Source: an uncultured Clostridia bacterium (GTDB lineage: Bacteria > Bacillota > Clostridia > Christensenellales > UBA1242). Taken from it: a DNA stretch of 64,000 nt. The notes below the pieces were generated by a model. The model worked only from the letters and a program-made list of their open reading frames with translations. It did no database searches and had not been told where the DNA came from. This document shows, piece after piece, positions 2,119 through 9,881 of this stretch. Where the stretch lies: contig CANQFL010000001.1 in assembly GCA_947598785.1 (NCBI GenBank), positions 12,563-76,562 on the forward strand, read 5' to 3'. Positions within the stretch are counted from its first letter, which is position 1; every line of letters starts with the position of its first letter. The position numbers and the translations under genes are program-made.

Positions 2119-2943
2119 ATGGAACAAAATGTAATTAAATTTAATGGTAGCAATGATAAATTATTGACGCGCTATGTGCTTGAAACATTAAATCCTAAAA
2201 TGACATTAATTGTACCTGAGACACATAATGCCATATTGATTAAAGACGGACAAATGCTTCAAACCCTTTCTTCTGGAAAGTATATGCTCAGTAATTTTAT
2301 TGATTTTAAAACAGAAATTGATAGCGCTATAGAAATCCTTTTTATGTCTAAAACTGCCAAATTAAAACTTTTGTGGGGAACTGCTTCTAAGCTTCTTATG
2401 TACGATGAAACCATACAAGAAAATTATAAACTTGGGCTTTCGGGTGATTTTGAAGTACAAGTTGGTGACCCTAGAAAATGTTACCTTTATCTTGTTGGAG
2501 TTGCTGAAGATTTAACTTCTATAGCATTACAAGATAGGCTGATGTCAAATGTAGTGTCTGTTGTTGAAACTGTAATTGTGGATTATGTTAAAACAAATAA
2601 AATTCCATTTAATCAAATTGCAGTTAATAAAAAAGAAATGTCACAAAAAGTATTAACATCTCTTTCACACAAATTAATGAGTGAATACGGAATTGCTGTT
2701 TTTTCTTTTAATATAGCAAATATTATTATTGATGATGAAGATTTAGCAAGATTGGGAAATTCATATAGGGCAAAGACTGAAAAACAAAAAGTTTGTAAAG
2801 GGTGTGGAAAACCTCTTTCAGAAAATGCTAAATTTTGTGCTTATTGTGGAAAAAGTGTTAACGAAGAAAAAATTTGTCCTAAATGTGGAAAAGAAAATCA
2901 ACAAAATTCTTTGTTCTGCTGTAATTGTGGTGAAAAACTTTAA
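2119..2943 (+). CDS. YdjI-type SPFH (Band_7_1-like) protein with a C-terminal double zinc ribbon
   Basis: The N-terminal ~220 aa follow the YdjI/'virion core protein-like' SPFH pattern ('LIVPETHNAILIKDGQ...SGKYML', 'EILFMSKTAKLKLLWGT', 'GDFEVQVGDPRK', 'YGIAVFSFNIANI'). The C-terminus has two CxxC-x10-CxxC ribbons (CKGC...CAYC and CPKC...CCNC, nt 2794-2940). Confidence 0.7.
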   Translation: MEQNVIKFNGSNDKLLTRYVLETLNPKMTLIVPETHNAILIKDGQMLQTLSSGKYMLSNFIDFKTEIDSAIEILFMSKTAKLKLLWGTASKLLMYDETIQENYKLGLSGDFEVQVGDPRKCYLYLVGVAEDLTSIALQDRLMSNVVSVVETVIVDYVKTNKIPFNQIAVNKKEMSQKVLTSLSHKLMSEYGIAVFSFNIANIIIDDEDLARLGNSYRAKTEKQKVCKGCGKPLSENAKFCAYCGKSVNEEKICPKCGKENQQNSLFCCNCGEKL

Positions 2944-2954
2944 GGAGGTAAAAT

Positions 2955-3362
2955 ATGATTGCACTTTATATTATAGTTATTTTAGCAATTATAGGTTTTG
3001 CAGTTTTTTATATTGTTAAGGAATATGTTAAAAAACCTAATGATGAGGCTAAGGGTGGAAGTAGAGGGATTTTAAAGAATAAAAAATCTATCGAAAACAT
3101 GGTTTCTAATGTTGAAAGCATTATTGTTTATGCAAATGGTAATGATGTACTTTGCCGAAGACTTGTTGAGGTTAAAGATAACATAAGATTTTTTAATCCA
3201 ACAACAAATGATAAAGTTTTAATCATTGACAGCAAAATTGCCAATAAACTTGATGACCTAAAAATTATGGTTGCAAAAGACAACACTCAGGAAACTTGTT
3301 TTAGACTTTTGGAAGAAGTTGAGGCTTACATAGTTCAAAGAAAGAAGGAAGAACAAAACTGA
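2955..3362 (+). CDS. small bitopic membrane protein (N-terminal TM helix plus ~105-aa soluble domain), unknown family
   Basis: RBS AAGGAGG lies 5 nt upstream. TM helix 'IALYIIVILAIIGFAVFYIV'. Its TGA stop overlaps the next ATG (TGATG at 3360-3364). Confidence 0.6.
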   Translation: MIALYIIVILAIIGFAVFYIVKEYVKKPNDEAKGGSRGILKNKKSIENMVSNVESIIVYANGNDVLCRRLVEVKDNIRFFNPTTNDKVLIIDSKIANKLDDLKIMVAKDNTQETCFRLLEEVEAYIVQRKKEEQN

Positions 3363-3721
3363 TGAAAAGAACTTATCAAATTTCTTCTAATCTTGATAAA
3401 CAAATTAGCGAGAAGGCTCAGAGAGAATTAAATTTAGGTTATTTGAATTTAAGTGATGAATGTTTTGAACAGGCAAAAATGAATTTTTTACTTACTCTTC
3501 AATATGATAACAAGTGTGCAGATGCCTATTGGGGGTTAATGTTAGTTAAATTTTCATTATCAAATGAAGATGAATTGTTCTCTAATCCTATCAAGTATAA
3601 AAGTGCAATACACTTGCCAGAATGTGAACAAGCTCTTAATAATGCTGACGAAGGTTTAAAAAATAAATATATGAGTTTACTTGAACGCATTTATAAGATA
3701 AATGAGGGAGATAATTATTAA
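3362..3721 (+). CDS. small helical TPR-like protein
   Basis: Start overlaps the upstream stop. The 'ADAYWGLMLVKFSLSNEDEL' helical-repeat motif recurs in the 1,260-aa protein of the same operon ('FEAYFGKSLA', 'AELYWILLKIKAHCISDSE'). Confidence 0.5.
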   Translation: MKRTYQISSNLDKQISEKAQRELNLGYLNLSDECFEQAKMNFLLTLQYDNKCADAYWGLMLVKFSLSNEDELFSNPIKYKSAIHLPECEQALNNADEGLKNKYMSLLERIYKINEGDNY

Positions 3722-3735
3722 AAAGGAGAAAATAA

Positions 3736-4341
3736 ATGTGGTTATTTAGTAGGAATAAATTTAAAAATCTTAAAAGGGAAGACTTAGTCAATTCTATTTG
3801 TGAGCTTGAAAGACAAGAACGTACTGTTGAAGCTGAGGTCCTTCAAAAAATAAAAGAAATAGATGCGTTACTTGAAAAAGGCAAGAAAGAAAAAAATAGA
3901 GAATTACAACTTTTTTATGCGAAAAAGATATCAAATATAAATGAAGAGAAAAAAGTTTGTATGGAACGAGGAATGTATCTCCTTTATAATATTCGATTAA
4001 TGAATAGATTAAAAGATGCTTATGACAGTAATAATTTTTTTAAAACTCAAACAAAAGTACCTCTTTCTGAATTGTTACAAGACCAAAAAAGATTGGCAAA
4101 GTTTTTAAATAAAGCCCTTGTAACAAGAACTGCTTCTGAAGATGTTTTAACAAGTGCAGATGAACTTTTTACAGAAGTACAAGCAGCGTATGATGTAAAT
4201 GATACAATTTATGGCGTTGGAAAATCAGAAGAAGATATATTAACAATGTTTGAACAGGAAGCAGCATTAAGTGAAGAAAAAGACCTTGCTGAAGAAAAGC
4301 AAGAGCCTATAAAAAAGAAAAAAATGAAAATGGAGGAATAA
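3736..4341 (+). CDS. ESCRT-III superfamily protein, Snf7/CHMP4-like (201 aa)
   Basis: RBS AAAGGAG upstream. N-terminus 'MWLFSRNKFK' resembles the Snf7 'MWSSLFGW' type. The helical-hairpin core 'LLEKGKKEKNRELQLFYAKKISNINEEKKVCMERGMYLLYNIRLMNRLKDA' resembles Snf7 'FLTKGNKVMAKNALKKKKTIEQLLSKVEGT...'. The C-terminal region is acidic ('EEDILTMFEQEAALSEEKDLAEE'). Confidence 0.6.
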   Translation: MWLFSRNKFKNLKREDLVNSICELERQERTVEAEVLQKIKEIDALLEKGKKEKNRELQLFYAKKISNINEEKKVCMERGMYLLYNIRLMNRLKDAYDSNNFFKTQTKVPLSELLQDQKRLAKFLNKALVTRTASEDVLTSADELFTEVQAAYDVNDTIYGVGKSEEDILTMFEQEAALSEEKDLAEEKQEPIKKKKMKMEE

Positions 4342-4345
4342 AAAT

Positions 4346-4942
4346 ATGGCACTTTTTAAATCAAAACAACAAAAAGAAATTGAAAAAAAGATGTTAATTA
4401 AAAGAACAATTAACACAATGAACAAGCAAATCAACAAATTAGAAGAACAAAAAAGAGTATTTGTCGAAGCAGCTAAAAAAGCTAAACAAAAAGATTTGGA
4501 AGCACAATATAACTTGGCATTATCAGGTTATAAAATGACAGTTCAACAACAAAAAAGAGCACAAGAAATGTTGTTAAATTTTGAAATTACAGCACAAATG
4601 AAAGATGTTACAATGATGACTTCTGAATTTTTGAAAGGTATGAGTGATATTTCAAAAGAGATGTCAAAACTTGCTGATGCAAAAGAATTTGCAAAAATTC
4701 AAGCTCAATTTGAACAAGCTATGGTTGCTGTTGAAACTCAAACTGACCAAATGGATAATTTTATGGAAATGAGCCAAGAAACATTTTACAATGCAGGTAA
4801 AGACAAGAGTGGAAAAGAAATGAGTGATGAAGATTTTGAAAAATTCATAATGGAACAAGCAAGCCAAGATGAACTTTCAACTGAAAATATAGATAAAGAA
4901 ATGGAAGCACTACGTAAAAAAATTGAGGATTCTGATAAATAG
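4346..4942 (+). CDS. ESCRT-III superfamily protein, CHMP2/3 (Vps2/Vps24)-like (198 aa)
   Basis: N-terminus 'MALFKSKQQKE' (cf. CHMP3 'MGLFGKTQEKP'). 'VEAAKKAKQKD' (cf. CHMP3 'VKDAAKKGQKD'). 'FAKIQAQFEQAMVAVETQTDQMDNFME' (cf. 'IQATMRELSKEMMKAGIIEEMLEDTFE'). Acidic linker and terminal amphipathic helix 'DKEMEALRKKIEDS' (MIM-like). RBS GGAGG 7 nt upstream. Confidence 0.7.
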   Translation: MALFKSKQQKEIEKKMLIKRTINTMNKQINKLEEQKRVFVEAAKKAKQKDLEAQYNLALSGYKMTVQQQKRAQEMLLNFEITAQMKDVTMMTSEFLKGMSDISKEMSKLADAKEFAKIQAQFEQAMVAVETQTDQMDNFMEMSQETFYNAGKDKSGKEMSDEDFEKFIMEQASQDELSTENIDKEMEALRKKIEDSDK

Positions 4943-4950
4943 GAGTTCAG

Positions 4951-6090
4951 ATGGAAGAGAATATAAATGTGCTTTCTGACACTTTTGAACTTTATATGAA
5001 AAAAGGTCGAGAAGCTAAAGAAAAAGGCAATATTGCGCTTGCAAAACGTAATTTTTTGCTTGCAAGTGAAACAATGATGAAAATTGCAAAACAGAGTCAA
5101 GGCAAATTGAAAGAAGCTAGAATGGAAAGGGCAAGAAGACTTATTGAACTTTCTGACAATATCAATAAAAGACCTCAAGTTTCATCAGTTAAGAAAGATA
5201 ACAATTCTAATACAGAAGAAGATGAAGACTTAAAGAAATGGGAAAGTGCCAAAATACCTGATATCAAATTTAGTGATGTTGCTGGTCTTGAAGATGTTAA
5301 AAAAGCTATTACAATAAAAATGATTAATCCTGTTAAATATCCTGAAAAATACAAATTGTATGGCAAAAAAACAGGAGGAGGAGTTTTGCTTTATGGCCCT
5401 CCAGGTACAGGTAAAACAATGATTGCAAAAGCGATAGCAAACGAAGTTGGTGCAAAATTTTATGCAGTAAAAGGCTCTGATATTGTCAGTAAATGGGTTG
5501 GAGATAGTGAAAAAAACATAAATTCATTATTTCAAGCTGCAAACAAACAAGATAGAGCAATAATTTTTATTGATGAAATGGATAGTTTGATTGGGCGTCG
5601 TGGAGTTGATACTCATAATGATAAACGTGTAAATGAATTTTTACAACAAATTGACGGTTTTGCTGGTAAAAATCCAAACTTACTTCTTTTAGGTGCGACA
5701 AATAGACCTTGGGATATTGACAGCGCAGCAATGCGTTCAGGAAGATTTTCGCAAAAAATATATTTACCTTTACCAGATGCTGATGCAAGACGATTTATGC
5801 TCGAGAAAAACATGAAAGGAGTTCCTGTTGTAAAAGATTTCAATATTGAAAAAATTGTTAAGCAAACTGAAGGATATAGTGGAGCTGATATTGAAGAACT
5901 TTGTGATAGGGCTAAAGATGAACCACTTTTACAATCTATTGCGACAGATAAAATTGTGCTTGTTTCTAATGATGACTTTGATAGGGTGTTAAAAATATTC
6001 CCACCAAGTGTAACACAAAAAGAAATACAAGCTTTTGAAAATTATAATGCAGAATTAGGAAGTATGATAAAGAATAAAAATAAAAAATAA
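4951..6090 (+). CDS. Vps4/CdvC-like AAA+ ATPase with an N-terminal MIT-like domain (379 aa)
   Basis: MIT-like three-helix segment at res ~8-72 ('KKGREAKEKGNIALAKRNFLLASETMMKIAKQ...RARRLIELSDNI'). Walker A GPPGTGKT (nt 5395-5418) and Walker B 'IIFIDEMD'. Meiotic-clade pore loop 'SKWVGDSEKNINSLF' (Vps4: 'SKWLGESEKLVKNLF'). 'ATNRPWDIDSAAMRSGRFSQKIYLPLPD'. C-terminal 'DDFDRVLKIFPPSV...AFENYNAELG' resembles the Vps4 C-terminal helix. There is no protease domain, so it is not FtsH. Confidence 0.8.
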   Translation: MEENINVLSDTFELYMKKGREAKEKGNIALAKRNFLLASETMMKIAKQSQGKLKEARMERARRLIELSDNINKRPQVSSVKKDNNSNTEEDEDLKKWESAKIPDIKFSDVAGLEDVKKAITIKMINPVKYPEKYKLYGKKTGGGVLLYGPPGTGKTMIAKAIANEVGAKFYAVKGSDIVSKWVGDSEKNINSLFQAANKQDRAIIFIDEMDSLIGRRGVDTHNDKRVNEFLQQIDGFAGKNPNLLLLGATNRPWDIDSAAMRSGRFSQKIYLPLPDADARRFMLEKNMKGVPVVKDFNIEKIVKQTEGYSGADIEELCDRAKDEPLLQSIATDKIVLVSNDDFDRVLKIFPPSVTQKEIQAFENYNAELGSMIKNKNKK

Positions 6091-6098
6091 GGATTTGT

Positions 6099-9000
6099 AT
6101 GAGAGAGCGTGTTTGTAGTAATTGTGGAGGTAAAAAATATAGGGTAGTTGGGCAGAACATGGTAAAATGTGAGTTCTGTGGTACTCTCTATGTAGATGAA
6201 CACGCATCAAAAGAAGAAGAAGTTTTAGTTGTTGGTGCAAATGATATTTTGCGTGCAACTAGGTTTGAAGAAGCAGTTGAAGAATTTGATAGGATAATTT
6301 CTCTTTATCCTATGTCTTTTGAAGCTTATTTTGGTAAATCTCTTGCAACTAATAAAATAATTTTATATAACAATAAAAAGGGGACAAATCGTTTCCCTCG
6401 TTTTTTTGGAGAATCTATTAATTCAATACTAGATGATGAAAATTATAAAAAAGCGATACAACTTGCACCTGAAGATACAATAAAAACATACACAGAACAA
6501 GCTAAAAGAATAGAAAAATGTTATAAAAGTTATGAAGATGTTTGTAAAAATGAAAATTATGATATAATTTTTTGCACAATTACTGAAAATATTGAAGAAG
6601 ATTTACATACAGAAATAAATGAACTATTACAAAAAAACAACTCAGTTTATGCTTTACCAGACAAAAATCACAAAGAGTTAGAGCCAAGAATTTTTAGGGC
6701 ACTTTTAACTTGTAAAGTTTTTGTTTTGTTTGTGAGTGGAAAAAATTTTTCTGATTTTAAACATTTGTATGATAGATATAATTATTTCATTAATTTACAT
6801 AAAAAAACAAAAAGCAGTGTTATTATTATTTTAGATGATGGTTTTACAACAAAAGATTTACCAAAAGATTTGGCTAAGTTTAAAAATGTTCTTGAATATA
6901 AAAGTGATACATTTTTAGAAGACTTAGATAAGACTGTAAATGAAGAAATTTCAAAATCAATAAAAGAAGTTGCCAAGATTGATGTAGTTAAGTTAAATAA
7001 AGAAAAACCACAAAAAAAAGAATATGTAAACTTAGAAAGTGTTGACCCTACTGATTTGGGACATTACAAAGTTGAAAATATATCTTTAAGTGATGAAAAT
7101 AAGATAAAGTGGATTTATTTATTAATAAAAAATGGAGATTTTACTACTGCAGAAAATCTTTTAAAAACAGAATTAGAAAAAGATGAATATAACAGTGAAC
7201 TTTTGTTCGCTGATTTATTAATTTCTAAAAATATTAAAACAGAAGAAGAATTTTGTGCAAATATTGCAAATTACAAAGATAAAACAAGAATAGATAGAAT
7301 TTTGAGATATGCTTCTAAAGATTTTGCCGAAAAATTTGTTGATAATTGGGAAAATTTAATTATTAATCTCAATATGGAAGAATATTATGAGGAATATACT
7401 CTTTATTTGGCACAATATAATACTCCAAACAGAGAAAATTTTATTAAACACGCTGAATTAATGGCTATAGAAACCATGGACGAAGAATTGATTGATATTG
7501 TTCAGAAATGTTTTAATAAAAATGATGTTGATAGGTTTATTAATTTCTATTATGCTCTTGCTCAAAAGAGTGATAATCAAAAATATTATGACAAAATTTT
7601 AGAATTAGACCAAGGGCATGAACAAAGCAATTTATCTATGTTAATCCAACATTTTAAAAGCCCTAATGATATTTTAACTTACAGAAATAAAGAAGAACTT
7701 GAAAATACATTCAAATACTTAAATGATGATGCAAGAGCAAATTTTGTCAATCAAATAGTTGATATGGTTTTGCCTGTTTCTTTTATGGATTTAGAAGCTG
7801 CTGAAAATCAACTTGATTTTTATTTGGCATATGTTGCAGATGAAACTAGATTAGCAGATTTAGCAAAAAAAATAGCAATAAAATTTCAGGAAATGAAATT
7901 TTTTAAACAAGCAGAAAAATATATTTCTATTGCACTTTCTAAAAATAAAGATAATGCAGAATTATATTGGATTTTGCTTAAAATTAAGGCACATTGCATT
8001 TCTGATAGTGAAGTTGTATCTTCATCAGTTGATTTTTCTAAAATGCCAGAATGGGAAACTTTAATTTCTTTGGCAAAAGAAGGGCAAATTGAAAAATTTG
8101 CTGAAGTTTTAAGCAAGAATAATTTATATAAAGGTGAAAGAACTGCTTTTGCACCTGATTTTTTAGACCAAAAATCTTCAGTTCAAAAAATCAAAGAATT
8201 TTTAGAAAGAAATGAAAAGATTTTGAATGAAATGGAAAAAGAAAACCCTAAAGATACTTTGATGGGTGTAAATTATTATCGCTTACAACTTAAACCATTT
8301 GAAAAAAGCATTGAAAAACTTTCAAATAGTAAAAATTATGAAGAGTTTAAGACTGCTATTCAAAATGTCTATGACAGATTGAAATCATTAGATTTAACTC
8401 TTGATACATCTATTAATGTCACTACTTTGATGTCTAGAAATGACGGGTTAAAAGGCGTTCAAGCTTCAAATGATTTAGAAAAGAAACAATATGATAAACA
8501 AATTAAAAATATCAAAAATGATAAATTTTTAAGAAGATTTTTATGTGGATTCTTGGAATTTTTCCCTAGTTTATTCATAACGCTTTTGTTATTTCTAGTT
8601 ATTATTCTTCCAAAAGAAGTTTATTTATATTTCAATCAAAATTTTATTATTGGAGCAATGATTGTTTCAGTTTTTCTTGGAATTGCCAATGCAATATTTT
8701 ATTTTCTAAAAAAGAAGAAAATAAATATCAAATGGAAGATAGCTAATTTATCTTTATTCGGTATAGGTATTATAAATTTAGTTTTATTTGCGTATGGGTT
8801 TTATTTCGCACCAATGTCAATTTCAATTTTAACAGGAAATGAACTTCAATTATTTATGAATAATGCTTATTATTCAAATATGGTTCTTGAAGATGATATT
8901 GATTTTACGAATGGGAATATATCAAATATAACTTTCCATGGAACTTTAGATGGAAATGGGCATAAAATTACAAACATTTCTATGGCTAAAGGTGGATTTA

Positions 9001-9881
9001 TCCTCAGTAATCATGGAACAATTAAAAATCTAGACTTATATTATGAAGATGGAAAAGTAATTAGTGATTGCCAAACATTTGGTGGAGTTGCAAGAATAAA
9101 TTTGGGAAATATCTCTAATTGTAAGGTTTATGGCAATTTGAGTTTTGAAACTAATATTGATAGCGTTATTGGTGGTATAGTAGGTGTAAATAATGGTGGT
9201 AAAATTGATTATTGCCAAAATAATCTTGTTATATCAGTTAATTCAAGTTCAGAAAATTTAACAGTTGGTGGATTTGCAGGGATTGTTGTTTCTGGAAAAT
9301 CTAACGCCATAATTACGCATAATACAAAATTAGGCAATATTAATATTACATCTAATGGGGTTAAAAACTTAAATGTAGGTGGACTCATTGGAAAGATTGA
9401 CAGAGTGAGTGCTTCTATTTCTGAAAATTCTTTAAGCGTTAATTTAAGAATATCAGGTAATGCTGAACATATATATATAGGAGGACTTATTGGAGACGGC
9501 CAAACTGCAAGTTTTAATAACAGTTTAATGGGCTCTATCACAACAGCAGATTTGACCGGGACAGAAGGATTTGTAGGTGGACTCTATGGCAGATTTAGAA
9601 ATACCAATTTTAATGATGAAATTAGGTATAGTTTTGCTGTAGTTAATATTTTAGGTGACAATTTAAAAAAAGGTGGTCTTTTTGGACAATTCGGGGGAGC
9701 TGTCAAAAATTGTTTTTCTAACATAGATATTATAGGCGATAAATTGAACTATTCTTTAGGTGATGGTTCTTGTTTAGTTTTAACCGATGAAAGATATAGC
9801 CAATCATTAGGCTTTGATGAGAACATTTGGTTTATTAAAGGAACAAGTAGTTATCCCGTTTTAAAATGGACTCTCGAATAA
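6099..9881 (+). CDS. 1,260-aa multidomain membrane protein: N-terminal zinc ribbon, TIR-like domain, long helical-repeat region, 3 TM helices, extracellular GLUG-repeat domain
   Basis: CSNCGG...CEFCG ribbon (nt 6114-6185). Flavodoxin/TIR-like segment 'NYDIIFCTITENIEEDL...KVFVLFVSGKNFSDF...SSVIIILDDG' (nt ~6555-6960). TPR-like helical repeats. Three hydrophobic helices (nt 8544-8815). C-terminal 'FHGTLDGNGHKITNISM' followed by repeated G-G-(L/F/I)-x-G motifs (GGVAR, GGIVG, GGFAG, GGLIG x2, GGLYG, GGLFG). Confidence 0.75.
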   Translation: MRERVCSNCGGKKYRVVGQNMVKCEFCGTLYVDEHASKEEEVLVVGANDILRATRFEEAVEEFDRIISLYPMSFEAYFGKSLATNKIILYNNKKGTNRFPRFFGESINSILDDENYKKAIQLAPEDTIKTYTEQAKRIEKCYKSYEDVCKNENYDIIFCTITENIEEDLHTEINELLQKNNSVYALPDKNHKELEPRIFRALLTCKVFVLFVSGKNFSDFKHLYDRYNYFINLHKKTKSSVIIILDDGFTTKDLPKDLAKFKNVLEYKSDTFLEDLDKTVNEEISKSIKEVAKIDVVKLNKEKPQKKEYVNLESVDPTDLGHYKVENISLSDENKIKWIYLLIKNGDFTTAENLLKTELEKDEYNSELLFADLLISKNIKTEEEFCANIANYKDKTRIDRILRYASKDFAEKFVDNWENLIINLNMEEYYEEYTLYLAQYNTPNRENFIKHAELMAIETMDEELIDIVQKCFNKNDVDRFINFYYALAQKSDNQKYYDKILELDQGHEQSNLSMLIQHFKSPNDILTYRNKEELENTFKYLNDDARANFVNQIVDMVLPVSFMDLEAAENQLDFYLAYVADETRLADLAKKIAIKFQEMKFFKQAEKYISIALSKNKDNAELYWILLKIKAHCISDSEVVSSSVDFSKMPEWETLISLAKEGQIEKFAEVLSKNNLYKGERTAFAPDFLDQKSSVQKIKEFLERNEKILNEMEKENPKDTLMGVNYYRLQLKPFEKSIEKLSNSKNYEEFKTAIQNVYDRLKSLDLTLDTSINVTTLMSRNDGLKGVQASNDLEKKQYDKQIKNIKNDKFLRRFLCGFLEFFPSLFITLLLFLVIILPKEVYLYFNQNFIIGAMIVSVFLGIANAIFYFLKKKKINIKWKIANLSLFGIGIINLVLFAYGFYFAPMSISILTGNELQLFMNNAYYSNMVLEDDIDFTNGNISNITFHGTLDGNGHKITNISMAKGGFILSNHGTIKNLDLYYEDGKVISDCQTFGGVARINLGNISNCKVYGNLSFETNIDSVIGGIVGVNNGGKIDYCQNNLVISVNSSSENLTVGGFAGIVVSGKSNAIITHNTKLGNINITSNGVKNLNVGGLIGKIDRVSASISENSLSVNLRISGNAEHIYIGGLIGDGQTASFNNSLMGSITTADLTGTEGFVGGLYGRFRNTNFNDEIRYSFAVVNILGDNLKKGGLFGQFGGAVKNCFSNIDIIGDKLNYSLGDGSCLVLTDERYSQSLGFDENIWFIKGTSSYPVLKWTLE

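Follow-up and report, generated by a model that had tools for sequence, protein, structure and literature searches.

In this work we analysed a window of 64,000 nucleotides (nt) from an uncultured Clostridia bacterium (contig CANQFL010000001.1, positions 12,563 to 76,562; by window we mean this whole stretch, whose G+C content is approximately 29%, and coordinates are counted from its first letter), and concentrated on three small genes at positions 2119-3721. These genes open an operon of seven genes on the + strand (2119-9881), which has the end of valS on one side and two ABC-transporter genes on the other. The operon unites, in a bacterium, Snf7-type ESCRT-III subunits, an AAA ATPase with an MIT domain (MIT-AAA ATPase) and a soluble SPFH protein of the type of Bacillus subtilis YdjI. 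The interpretation that we favour, and hold with moderate confidence, is that genes 1 to 3 encode targeting or adaptor subunits of a bacterial membrane-remodelling machine of the ESCRT-III/Vps4 kind, encoded by this single operon. The three open reading frames (ORFs) had been picked out in an earlier reading of the letters, made without database searches (the sequence-only reading); their coordinates proved to be exact, and they do lead the seven genes.

The seven genes are tightly packed. The gaps between successive genes, from gene 1 to gene 7, are 11, -1, 14, 4, 8 and 8 nt, the start of gene 3 overlapping the stop of gene 2 (ATGA), and all seven have an ATG start and a Shine-Dalgarno-like sequence. 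When one genome per species was scanned, 106 species proved to have a relative of gene 5, and genes were counted in the best 80 of these 106 loci, which come from metagenome-assembled genomes (MAGs) of gut or rumen Clostridia (Candidatus Caccovivens, Candidatus Coproplasma, Christensenella/Christensenellaceae and similar). Genes 1, 2, 4 and 6 were present in 75, 76, 77 and 77 of the 80 loci, respectively, and gene 3 stood on its own as a small gene in 55; the loci missing a gene are mostly on truncated contigs. The order SPFH protein, anchor, (TPR protein), ESCRT-III-like protein, Snf7-like protein, AAA ATPase is kept in 75-77 of the 80 species-level loci, across which identities range from 91 to 56% for gene 5 and from 73 to 28% for gene 1. 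Downstream synteny (ABC transporters, pfl) is also kept, and the operon is near-universal across the whole clade. Because the order is kept while the upstream flank is never conserved (valS is not the upstream neighbour in any of the 80 related loci), the arrangement is non-random, far beyond what chance would give. The co-occurrence of SPFH and ESCRT-III-like genes, which the sequence-only reading had proposed to look for in other genomes, is found, with two ESCRT-III-like genes and an AAA ATPase, far beyond this one, in the 80 species loci as well as in the distant loci described below.

These data also bear on the trivial explanation, namely that the genes are neighbours without functional consequence or that the small ORFs are spurious. 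One can say in its favour that genes 2, 3 and 4 belong to no database family, but the ORFs recur, with their order conserved, in 55-77 of 80 species, have Shine-Dalgarno sites, are spaced by 4-14 nt or joined by a stop/start overlap, and have hundreds of homologues in protein databases. We consider this explanation effectively refuted by the conservation data and give it practically no weight.

The identification of the polymer-forming subunits starts from gene 5 (4346-4942, + strand, 198 amino acids (aa)). As a single sequence the protein gave no match in Pfam, NCBIfam or PDB. Its family comprises 315 representatives at 50% clustering and 574-591 database relatives (591 clusters at 90%), and a profile made from 96 diverse members matched human CHMP2A in PDB (E = 3e-6 over positions 7-150) and, more weakly, CHMP1B and CHMP3; neither PspA nor Vipp1 was matched by this profile in the same database. 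Pfam Snf7 was matched by 27 of the 96 family members (best E = 9.6e-7), and was the only family to be matched recurrently. The C-terminus is conserved in the family ('D.EI..LI ... [IL][DE]KELEELKKKI') and has the appearance of an amphipathic helix similar to a MIT-interacting motif (MIM); we take the part '[IL][DE]KELEELKKKI' to resemble the MIM1 pattern. Judged from these profiles gene 5 is, at the family level, a Snf7-type ESCRT-III protein and not a PspA-type (PF04012) one, in agreement with the Snf7-type identity assumed for this neighbour by the sequence-only reading.

Gene 4 (3736-4341, + strand, 201 aa) appears to be a remote paralogue of gene 5, and we think it quite likely that it is a second ESCRT-III protein. 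The single sequence matched nothing in Pfam, NCBIfam or PDB; the family has 879 database relatives. When distant members had been added, hhalign aligned the gene-4 and gene-5 families collinearly (positions 1-180 with 1-176, P = 75.7%, E = 2.4e-5); before their addition the match was weak (P = 8%). The AlphaFold2 model of gene 4 (pLDDT 68.8) consists of a helical hairpin (residues 14-51 and 55-98) plus four shorter helices. In a Foldseek search with this model the top positions were taken by CdvB2 filaments (probability 0.97, TM-score 0.46-0.52) at an E-value of 0.19, which is not significant; other ESCRT-III proteins, PspA and Vipp1 followed further down the list, all with non-significant E-values. 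The gene-4 family profile gave no ESCRT-III match among PDB sequences. It must be noted that a survey for co-occurrence of PF13421 with PF03357, proposed in the sequence-only reading, would miss this system, because neither gene 4 nor gene 5 of the window matches Pfam Snf7 at E < 1. The gene-4 and gene-5 profiles supply two families that Pfam does not capture. In some distant clusters (L084:577-1767) two gene-4-like paralogues stand in tandem, the order being gene-4-like, gene-4-like, AAA, gene-5-like.

Gene 6 (4951-6090, + strand, 379 aa) encodes the ATPase. It matched Pfam AAA (E = 1e-42), AAA_lid_3 and, weakly, Vps4_C (E = 7e-4, 19.9 bits, cut-off 21.3). The CdvC model of NCBIfam aligned with it from end to end (residues 8-366 with model positions 7-365 of 370, E = 1e-63), at a score of 215 bits against the 650 bits required by this equivalog model, and the Cdc48 model scored slightly higher. 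Residues 1-75 (nt 4951-5175) look like an MIT-type three-helix region: the N-terminal profile of the gene-6 family matched 2mpk_A ('Chitin synthase 1', 74 aa; E = 9e-4), which we take to be an MIT domain, and Pfam MIT was matched by 5 of 19 gene-6 homologues (best E = 9.7e-5). The lid and the C-terminus match those of p97, VAT, fidgetin-like proteins, CdvC and katanin, and the pore loop 'SKWVGDSEK' is presumably similar to the Vps4/fidgetin type. These matches suggest a Vps4/CdvC architecture, be it that of a Vps4-clade member or of an analogue, with the MIT domain assigned at the level of the family. Some distant clusters have a tandem of AAA ATPase genes; in L090:4356-6725 the two products, of 408 and 377 aa, both match the profile of gene 6.

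The first gene of the operon (gene 1, 2119-2943, + strand, 274 aa) matched Pfam Band_7_1 (PF13421) with E = 3.2e-14 and 53.5 bits, the gathering cut-off being 24; the match extends over residues 29-207 (nt 2203-2739) and over model positions 16-198 of 211. Residues 226-271 (nt 2794-2931) matched the double zinc ribbon family DZR (PF12773, E = 2.9e-8) above its gathering score, and Zn_Ribbon_1 was matched above the cut-off as well. The prediction of an N-terminal SPFH domain followed by a double zinc ribbon is confirmed by these profiles. Conservation of the eight zinc-ligand cysteines is nearly complete (73-75 of 75 homologues), and all of 11 diverse SPFH proteins from related clusters matched both the Band_7_1 and the zinc-ribbon models; in several of the cluster homologues a coiled-coil insert separates the two domains. 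No hydrophobic segment was found in the gene 1 protein, which indicates that it is soluble. YdjI itself is, we assume, a PF13421 member. The sequence-only reading had gone further and described gene 1 as a union of what B. subtilis divides between YdjI and YdjG, and this description is not supported. A zinc-finger motif is present near the C-terminus of YdjI (PMC8581546), which has been described as a band-7 domain with a C-terminal zinc ribbon, YdjG having two zinc ribbons, an NTF2-like domain and a transmembrane (TM) segment (PMC11237479). Since YdjI already has its own C-terminal zinc ribbon, there is no need to assume a fusion of YdjI and YdjG; by its domain composition gene 1 has the plain YdjI-type architecture, in which the SPFH protein is soluble and ends in a zinc ribbon.

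Gene 2 (2955-3362, + strand, 135 aa) encodes a small anchor protein, which has one N-terminal TM segment (residues 2-20, nt 2958-3014) and a conserved helical domain of approximately 90 aa. Neither the window protein nor its diverse homologues match any Pfam family, and a single-sequence model was all-helical, with low confidence (pLDDT 57.6). The single-pass membrane topology proposed earlier is thus correct, but the proposed equivalence with YdjH is not. YdjH is a TPM-domain protein (PMC11237479), and at E <= 0.1 the TPM domain is absent from gene 2 and from 15 of 15 diverse homologues; for this reason gene 2 as a YdjH homologue was ruled out, and the gene order differs as well. A more informative relationship is found in a distant relative (L082:7065-7997, also L083), where a protein of 310 aa consists of a gene-2 soluble domain that lacks the TM helix, fused to a gene-4-like domain (E = 1e-14 and 2e-39, respectively). 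The gene of this fusion protein is flanked by a Band_7_1+DZR gene on one side and by a Snf7-like gene on the other. By the Rosetta-stone argument the fusion suggests that genes 2 and 4 work together, and by analogy gene 2 could have a role similar to that of CdvA as a recruiter. In many gene-2 homologues (L058-L080) the TM helix is replaced by a short basic N-terminus ('MCF/MGLF..KKK'), and the ESCRT-III-like proteins likewise start with 'MALFKSK' or 'MWPFK'; these basic stretches may be alternative membrane-binding N-termini.

Gene 3 (3362-3721, + strand, 119 aa) appears to be a stand-alone TPR-like module. Alone it matches no Pfam family. Residues 24-59 (nt 3431-3538) of the gene-3 family profile matched the TPR proteins 8ump_A (E = 1.2e-6) and 2fo7_A (E = 2.2e-4), which are designed or consensus proteins, and weak Pfam TPR matches, below the gathering scores, were seen in 2-4 of 16 homologues; there is only one clear TPR repeat. 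Modules of the same kind occur in gene 7 (6099-9881, + strand, 1,260 aa), which encodes a multidomain membrane protein composed, from the N-terminus, of a zinc ribbon, three gene-3-like modules (nt 6240-6530, 7116-7340 and 7896-8123), three TM segments (residues 819-899, nt 8553-8795) and an ectodomain of GLUG-like repeats (nt 8799-9878; GLUG E = 0.001, just below the cut-off). In profile-profile comparison gene 3 matched gene 7 at residues 600-675 (P = 97%, E = 1e-10), 48-144 (P = 95.5%, E = 1.6e-8) and 340-414 (P = 78%, E = 1.9e-5), and the homology spans 75-90 columns, well beyond one TPR. The likeness between gene 3 and the 1,260-aa protein, noticed from a common helical string, is therefore a real homology of modules, but the string itself ('CADAYWGLML' in gene 3) seems to be largely a generic TPR signature, and the N-terminal copy in gene 7 ('SFEAYFGKSL') deviates from it. 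In loci without a separate gene 3, which are the more distant ones, the gene-3 query matches the gene-7-like protein instead. Gene-3 homologues end in a near-fixed tail, '(K)INEGDNY' (approximately nt 3698-3718 in the window), which may be a short binding peptide. The large protein keeps its gene-3-like modules and exchanges other domains, GLUG-like repeats in the window being replaced by weak LRR_5 matches in the protein encoded by L089:14030-17803; no hydrophobic segment was found in the latter at the threshold used.

The grouping of SPFH, Snf7-like and AAA genes recurs in distant loci with G+C contents of 32-56%. Locus L082, in which gene 5 identity is 45%, contains, in this order, a Band_7_1+DZR gene, the gene of the 310-aa fusion protein, and genes for a Snf7-like protein, an AAA ATPase, an FHA protein, PP2C and a kinase. 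In L087 (34% gene-5 identity) the genes encode, in order, PP2C, a kinase, a VWA protein, a 360-aa protein, a Band_7_1 protein, a 96-aa protein, a gene-4-like protein, a Snf7-like protein and an AAA ATPase; of the two middle proteins the one compared, of 193 aa, is gene-4-like by its match (E = 6e-22). Band_7_1, Snf7-like and AAA genes are also found together in L089 (56% G+C) and L090 (43% G+C), where the genes between them are not recognisably gene-2- or gene-4-like.

The domain identities, the operon structure, the gene order, the gene-2/gene-4 fusion and the gene-3/gene-7 homology being established, the physical interactions, the polymerisation, the ATP-driven disassembly and the physiological role that we infer can be outlined as follows. 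The SPFH protein (gene 1), free of a membrane anchor like YdjI, would oligomerise beneath the cytoplasmic membrane, where partner proteins would hold it, and its two zinc ribbons would be the likely docking surface; in this way it may recruit the polymers. The gene 2 protein, through its TM helix or basic N-terminus, would bind gene 4 and set it on the membrane as a nucleator. Gene 4 and the Snf7-type gene 5 would then co-polymerise, and the MIT domain of gene 6 would bind the C-terminal helix of gene 5 and extract subunits, leading to ATP-driven turnover or constriction of the polymer. Gene 3 and the three cytoplasmic modules of gene 7 may bind the same partner, and such binding would couple the machine to what gene 7 detects or presents on the outer side of the cell.

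Several observations weigh against this interpretation. The genes 4 and 5 of the window themselves match no Pfam ESCRT-III model, and the ESCRT-III status of gene 4 rests on an hhalign probability of 76% and on a medium-confidence model with non-significant Foldseek E-values. The N-terminus of gene 6 itself stays below the Pfam MIT threshold, and its AAA core and lid match Cdc48/p97 D2 at least as well as Vps4/CdvC. Three distant loci with Snf7-like and AAA genes show no SPFH gene, two of them being on contigs of only 3-4 kb; because of these loci it is possible that the SPFH protein is an accessory of one branch only. Finally, B. subtilis SamGHI (YdjGHI) also has signalling roles that are independent of PspA, and the loss of SamI (YdjI) results in phenotypes in transcription and biofilms that do not require PspA (bioRxiv 10.64898/2026.02.06.704340). 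The latter results suggest a different explanation, in which genes 1 to 3 would form a stress-signalling complex of their own, similar to YdjGHI/SamGHI, and would have no more than a transcript in common with the ESCRT-III-like genes, whose products would not be recruited by the complex; that gene 3 shares modules with gene 7 and not with the ESCRT-III-like genes would fit this. However, the gene-2/gene-4 fusion physically ties the leading genes to an ESCRT-III-like subunit, and the adjacency of the SPFH gene to Snf7-like and AAA genes persists across 29-56% G+C while other neighbours change. We therefore allow a separate complex only a slim chance, and retain the assignment of genes 1 to 3 as adaptors of the ESCRT-III/Vps4-like machine.

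One of the closest parallels is the pspA-ydjGHI operon of B. subtilis. There PspA forms foci at the membrane only when the soluble SPFH protein YdjI is present, and YdjI in turn depends on YdjG and YdjH (PMC8581546). In both operons an anchor-free band-7/SPFH protein with a C-terminal zinc ribbon is encoded together with ESCRT-III-superfamily proteins and small membrane proteins. The differences are, however, substantial. The polymer genes described here are Snf7-type and not PspA-type, and they are accompanied by the gene of an MIT-AAA ATPase; the operon described for B. subtilis consists of pspA, ydjG, ydjH and ydjI only (PMC8581546). Gene 2 has no TPM domain, the SPFH gene is the first in the order, and there are additional proteins with TPR modules; no YdjG-type protein was recognised among the domain matches of the operon.

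A second parallel is found in archaea, in which Snf7/Vps4 loci can include a protein with SPFH, coiled-coil and zinc-ribbon parts (the 'Meth_adaptin' loci, Makarova et al. 2024, PMC10936438). The coiled-coil insert in several of the cluster homologues of gene 1 is reminiscent of this protein, and L082 and L087 resemble other archaeal ESCRT loci, which contain FHA, serine/threonine kinase and phosphatase genes (PMC10936438). Unlike the Meth_adaptin loci, to which the likeness was judged by description, our loci have bacterial hosts (Clostridia MAGs), and we recognised neither adaptin-appendage nor GOLD or ProX genes in them. With the crenarchaeal CdvABC and eukaryotic ESCRT-III/Vps4 systems the operon shares the MIM-like C-terminal helix of gene 5. 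In contrast to crenarchaeal CdvABC, it has no CdvA (PRC barrel) and its ESCRT-III proteins have no winged-helix domain; gene 6 differs from CdvC in scoring far below the NCBIfam cut-off and in having a core that is as Cdc48 D2-like as it is Vps4-like. Among bacteria, transfer of VPS4-like ATPases to several phyla has been reported, with snf7 replaced by the gene of a TPR and multi-TM protein, and bacterial Snf7 homologues were occasionally found with AAA ATPases (Ravi et al. 2024, PMC11237479). The TPR and multi-TM protein of those operons (PMC11237479) is reminiscent of gene 7. In the operons of Ravi et al. snf7 has, by their description, been displaced, whereas the Clostridia operon has two ESCRT-III-like genes and an SPFH gene.

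By analogy with the Psp system, the most likely purpose of the machine would be the repair or remodelling of damaged membrane, the main alternative being a role at the division septum. In the latter case the operon would encode a division or abscission machine acting at the closing septum or at the necks of forespores or vesicles. Its site would be marked by the SPFH protein and gene 2, and fission would be coordinated with the clearing of DNA. Such septal or neck scission coordinated with DNA is suggested by fusion proteins whose genes adjoin the same type of cluster. A Snf7-like domain of the gene-5 type is found at the N-terminus of complete RuvB (RuvB_N, lid and RuvB_C) in P0179, P0188, P0169 and P0237, some of the Snf7-RuvB proteins carrying a NERD nuclease domain at the C-terminus, and on the alpha and motor domains of FtsK, where it takes the place of the membrane domain that targets canonical FtsK to the septum, in P0184, P0187, P0173 and P0192. 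Genes for both kinds of fusion protein (at L089:8001-9863 and L090:8001-9812) stand beside Band_7_1 + Snf7-like + AAA clusters. The identity of gene 5, 82-91% across many species, is what would be expected for a housekeeping function, and CdvABC and eukaryotic abscission provide precedents (PMC7619361). On the other hand, no division genes adjoin the operon in the window, and the neighbours in other related loci point to stress or defence. We consider the division machine unlikely, though far from negligible.

These neighbours raise the question of whether the operon could be a membrane-linked defence system, in which gene 7 would sense a phage or a toxin, a TIR-related region together with kinase and phosphatase would transmit the signal, and the polymer would repair or sacrifice the membrane. 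Directly beside the clusters there are a TerY-P-like triad of PP2C, kinase and VWA genes (L087:1264-4272) and a group of FHA, PP2C and kinase genes (L082:9898-14154), and next to the cluster of L090 there are four TerD genes with Ter-associated enzymes (L090:12608-17812); TerY-P-like modules have been reported as defence modules (PMC11090510). Next to the operon of the window there is nothing comparable. A role in envelope stress or defence is suggested by these modules and by a TIR protein encoded beside one of the relatives. The TIR protein (589 aa, L090:27-1796) also has a zinc ribbon and the first TPR-like module (gene-7 profile positions 23-295, E = 6e-22), and its part listed as Pfam TIR_2 is homologous to residues 145-305 of gene 7 (nt 6531-7013; E = 2.9e-11), which lie between modules 1 and 2 and appear to be a degenerate TIR-related region. 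That the ectodomains vary among relatives, from GLUG-like to LRR_5, would be in line with defence. However, the gene 7 region has no direct TIR match in Pfam or PDB, so that its relationship to TIR is transitive, through the L090 protein, and an aspartate ('LYDRY') stands where the latter has the glutamate of the TIR motif ('VVNEW'). Apart from generic AAA similarity, PADLOC gave no match to a defence family, and viral contigs contained no relatives in our search. The conserved downstream synteny and the near-universal presence in the clade are also unlike the patchy distribution of defence islands. We regard a defence function as quite unlikely, and membrane repair or remodelling by the ESCRT-III/Vps4-like machine as the better working hypothesis.

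The sequence-only reading considered a connection between SPFH scaffolds and Snf7-type proteins as not established. As far as experiments are concerned this is true, but the gene context in archaea has already been noted (PMC10936438). A link from SPFH proteins to ESCRT-III is thus already known, for PspA from experiment and for archaea from gene context, and what we did not find in the searched literature is the bacterial combination of Snf7, MIT-AAA ATPase and SPFH protein. This literature, which covers few subscription journals, contained no description of a bacterial Snf7/Vps4/SPFH combination in Clostridia or Christensenellaceae. According to a review of 2025 a Vps4-like ATPase appears to be absent in bacteria (PMC7619361), and another paper states that ESCRT components can be identified in archaea 'but not in bacteria' (PMC10936438). 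With ESCRT and Vps4 placed outside bacteria in this way, bacterial ESCRT-III biology has been equated with PspA and Vipp1. The operon makes the SPFH-to-ESCRT-III link testable in a third setting, one in which the ATPase is present.

A bolder interpretation can also be formulated, which we consider possible but doubtful. According to this, an entire clade of gut Clostridia, with Caccovivens, Coproplasma and Christensenellaceae-like MAGs, and other bacteria here and there would own a complete, vertically maintained ESCRT-like machine. Its parts would be a scaffold of SPFH domain and zinc ribbon, an anchor in the membrane, two paralogous ESCRT-III proteins of the Snf7 type and an MIT-AAA analogue of Vps4. 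Its kinship with the archaeal ESCRT systems that contain SPFH proteins would be due to transfer or to common descent, and the machine would be tied, through the Snf7-FtsK and Snf7-RuvB proteins, to the clearance of DNA during scission. If true, this would contradict the stated absence of Vps4-driven Snf7-type ESCRT systems from bacteria, and would provide a bacterial model of an SPFH microdomain nucleating ESCRT-III.

Upstream of the operon, a terminator-like hairpin (1923-1946, + strand; a stem of 10 bp followed by a run of T) follows valS, a gene that extends past the left edge of the window, and would mark the upstream boundary of the operon. A promoter-like site, recognised by its match to the consensus only (TTGACT, a spacer of 17 nt and a TG-extended TATTAT), is located at 2067-2095 on the + strand, 24 nt 5' of gene 1.

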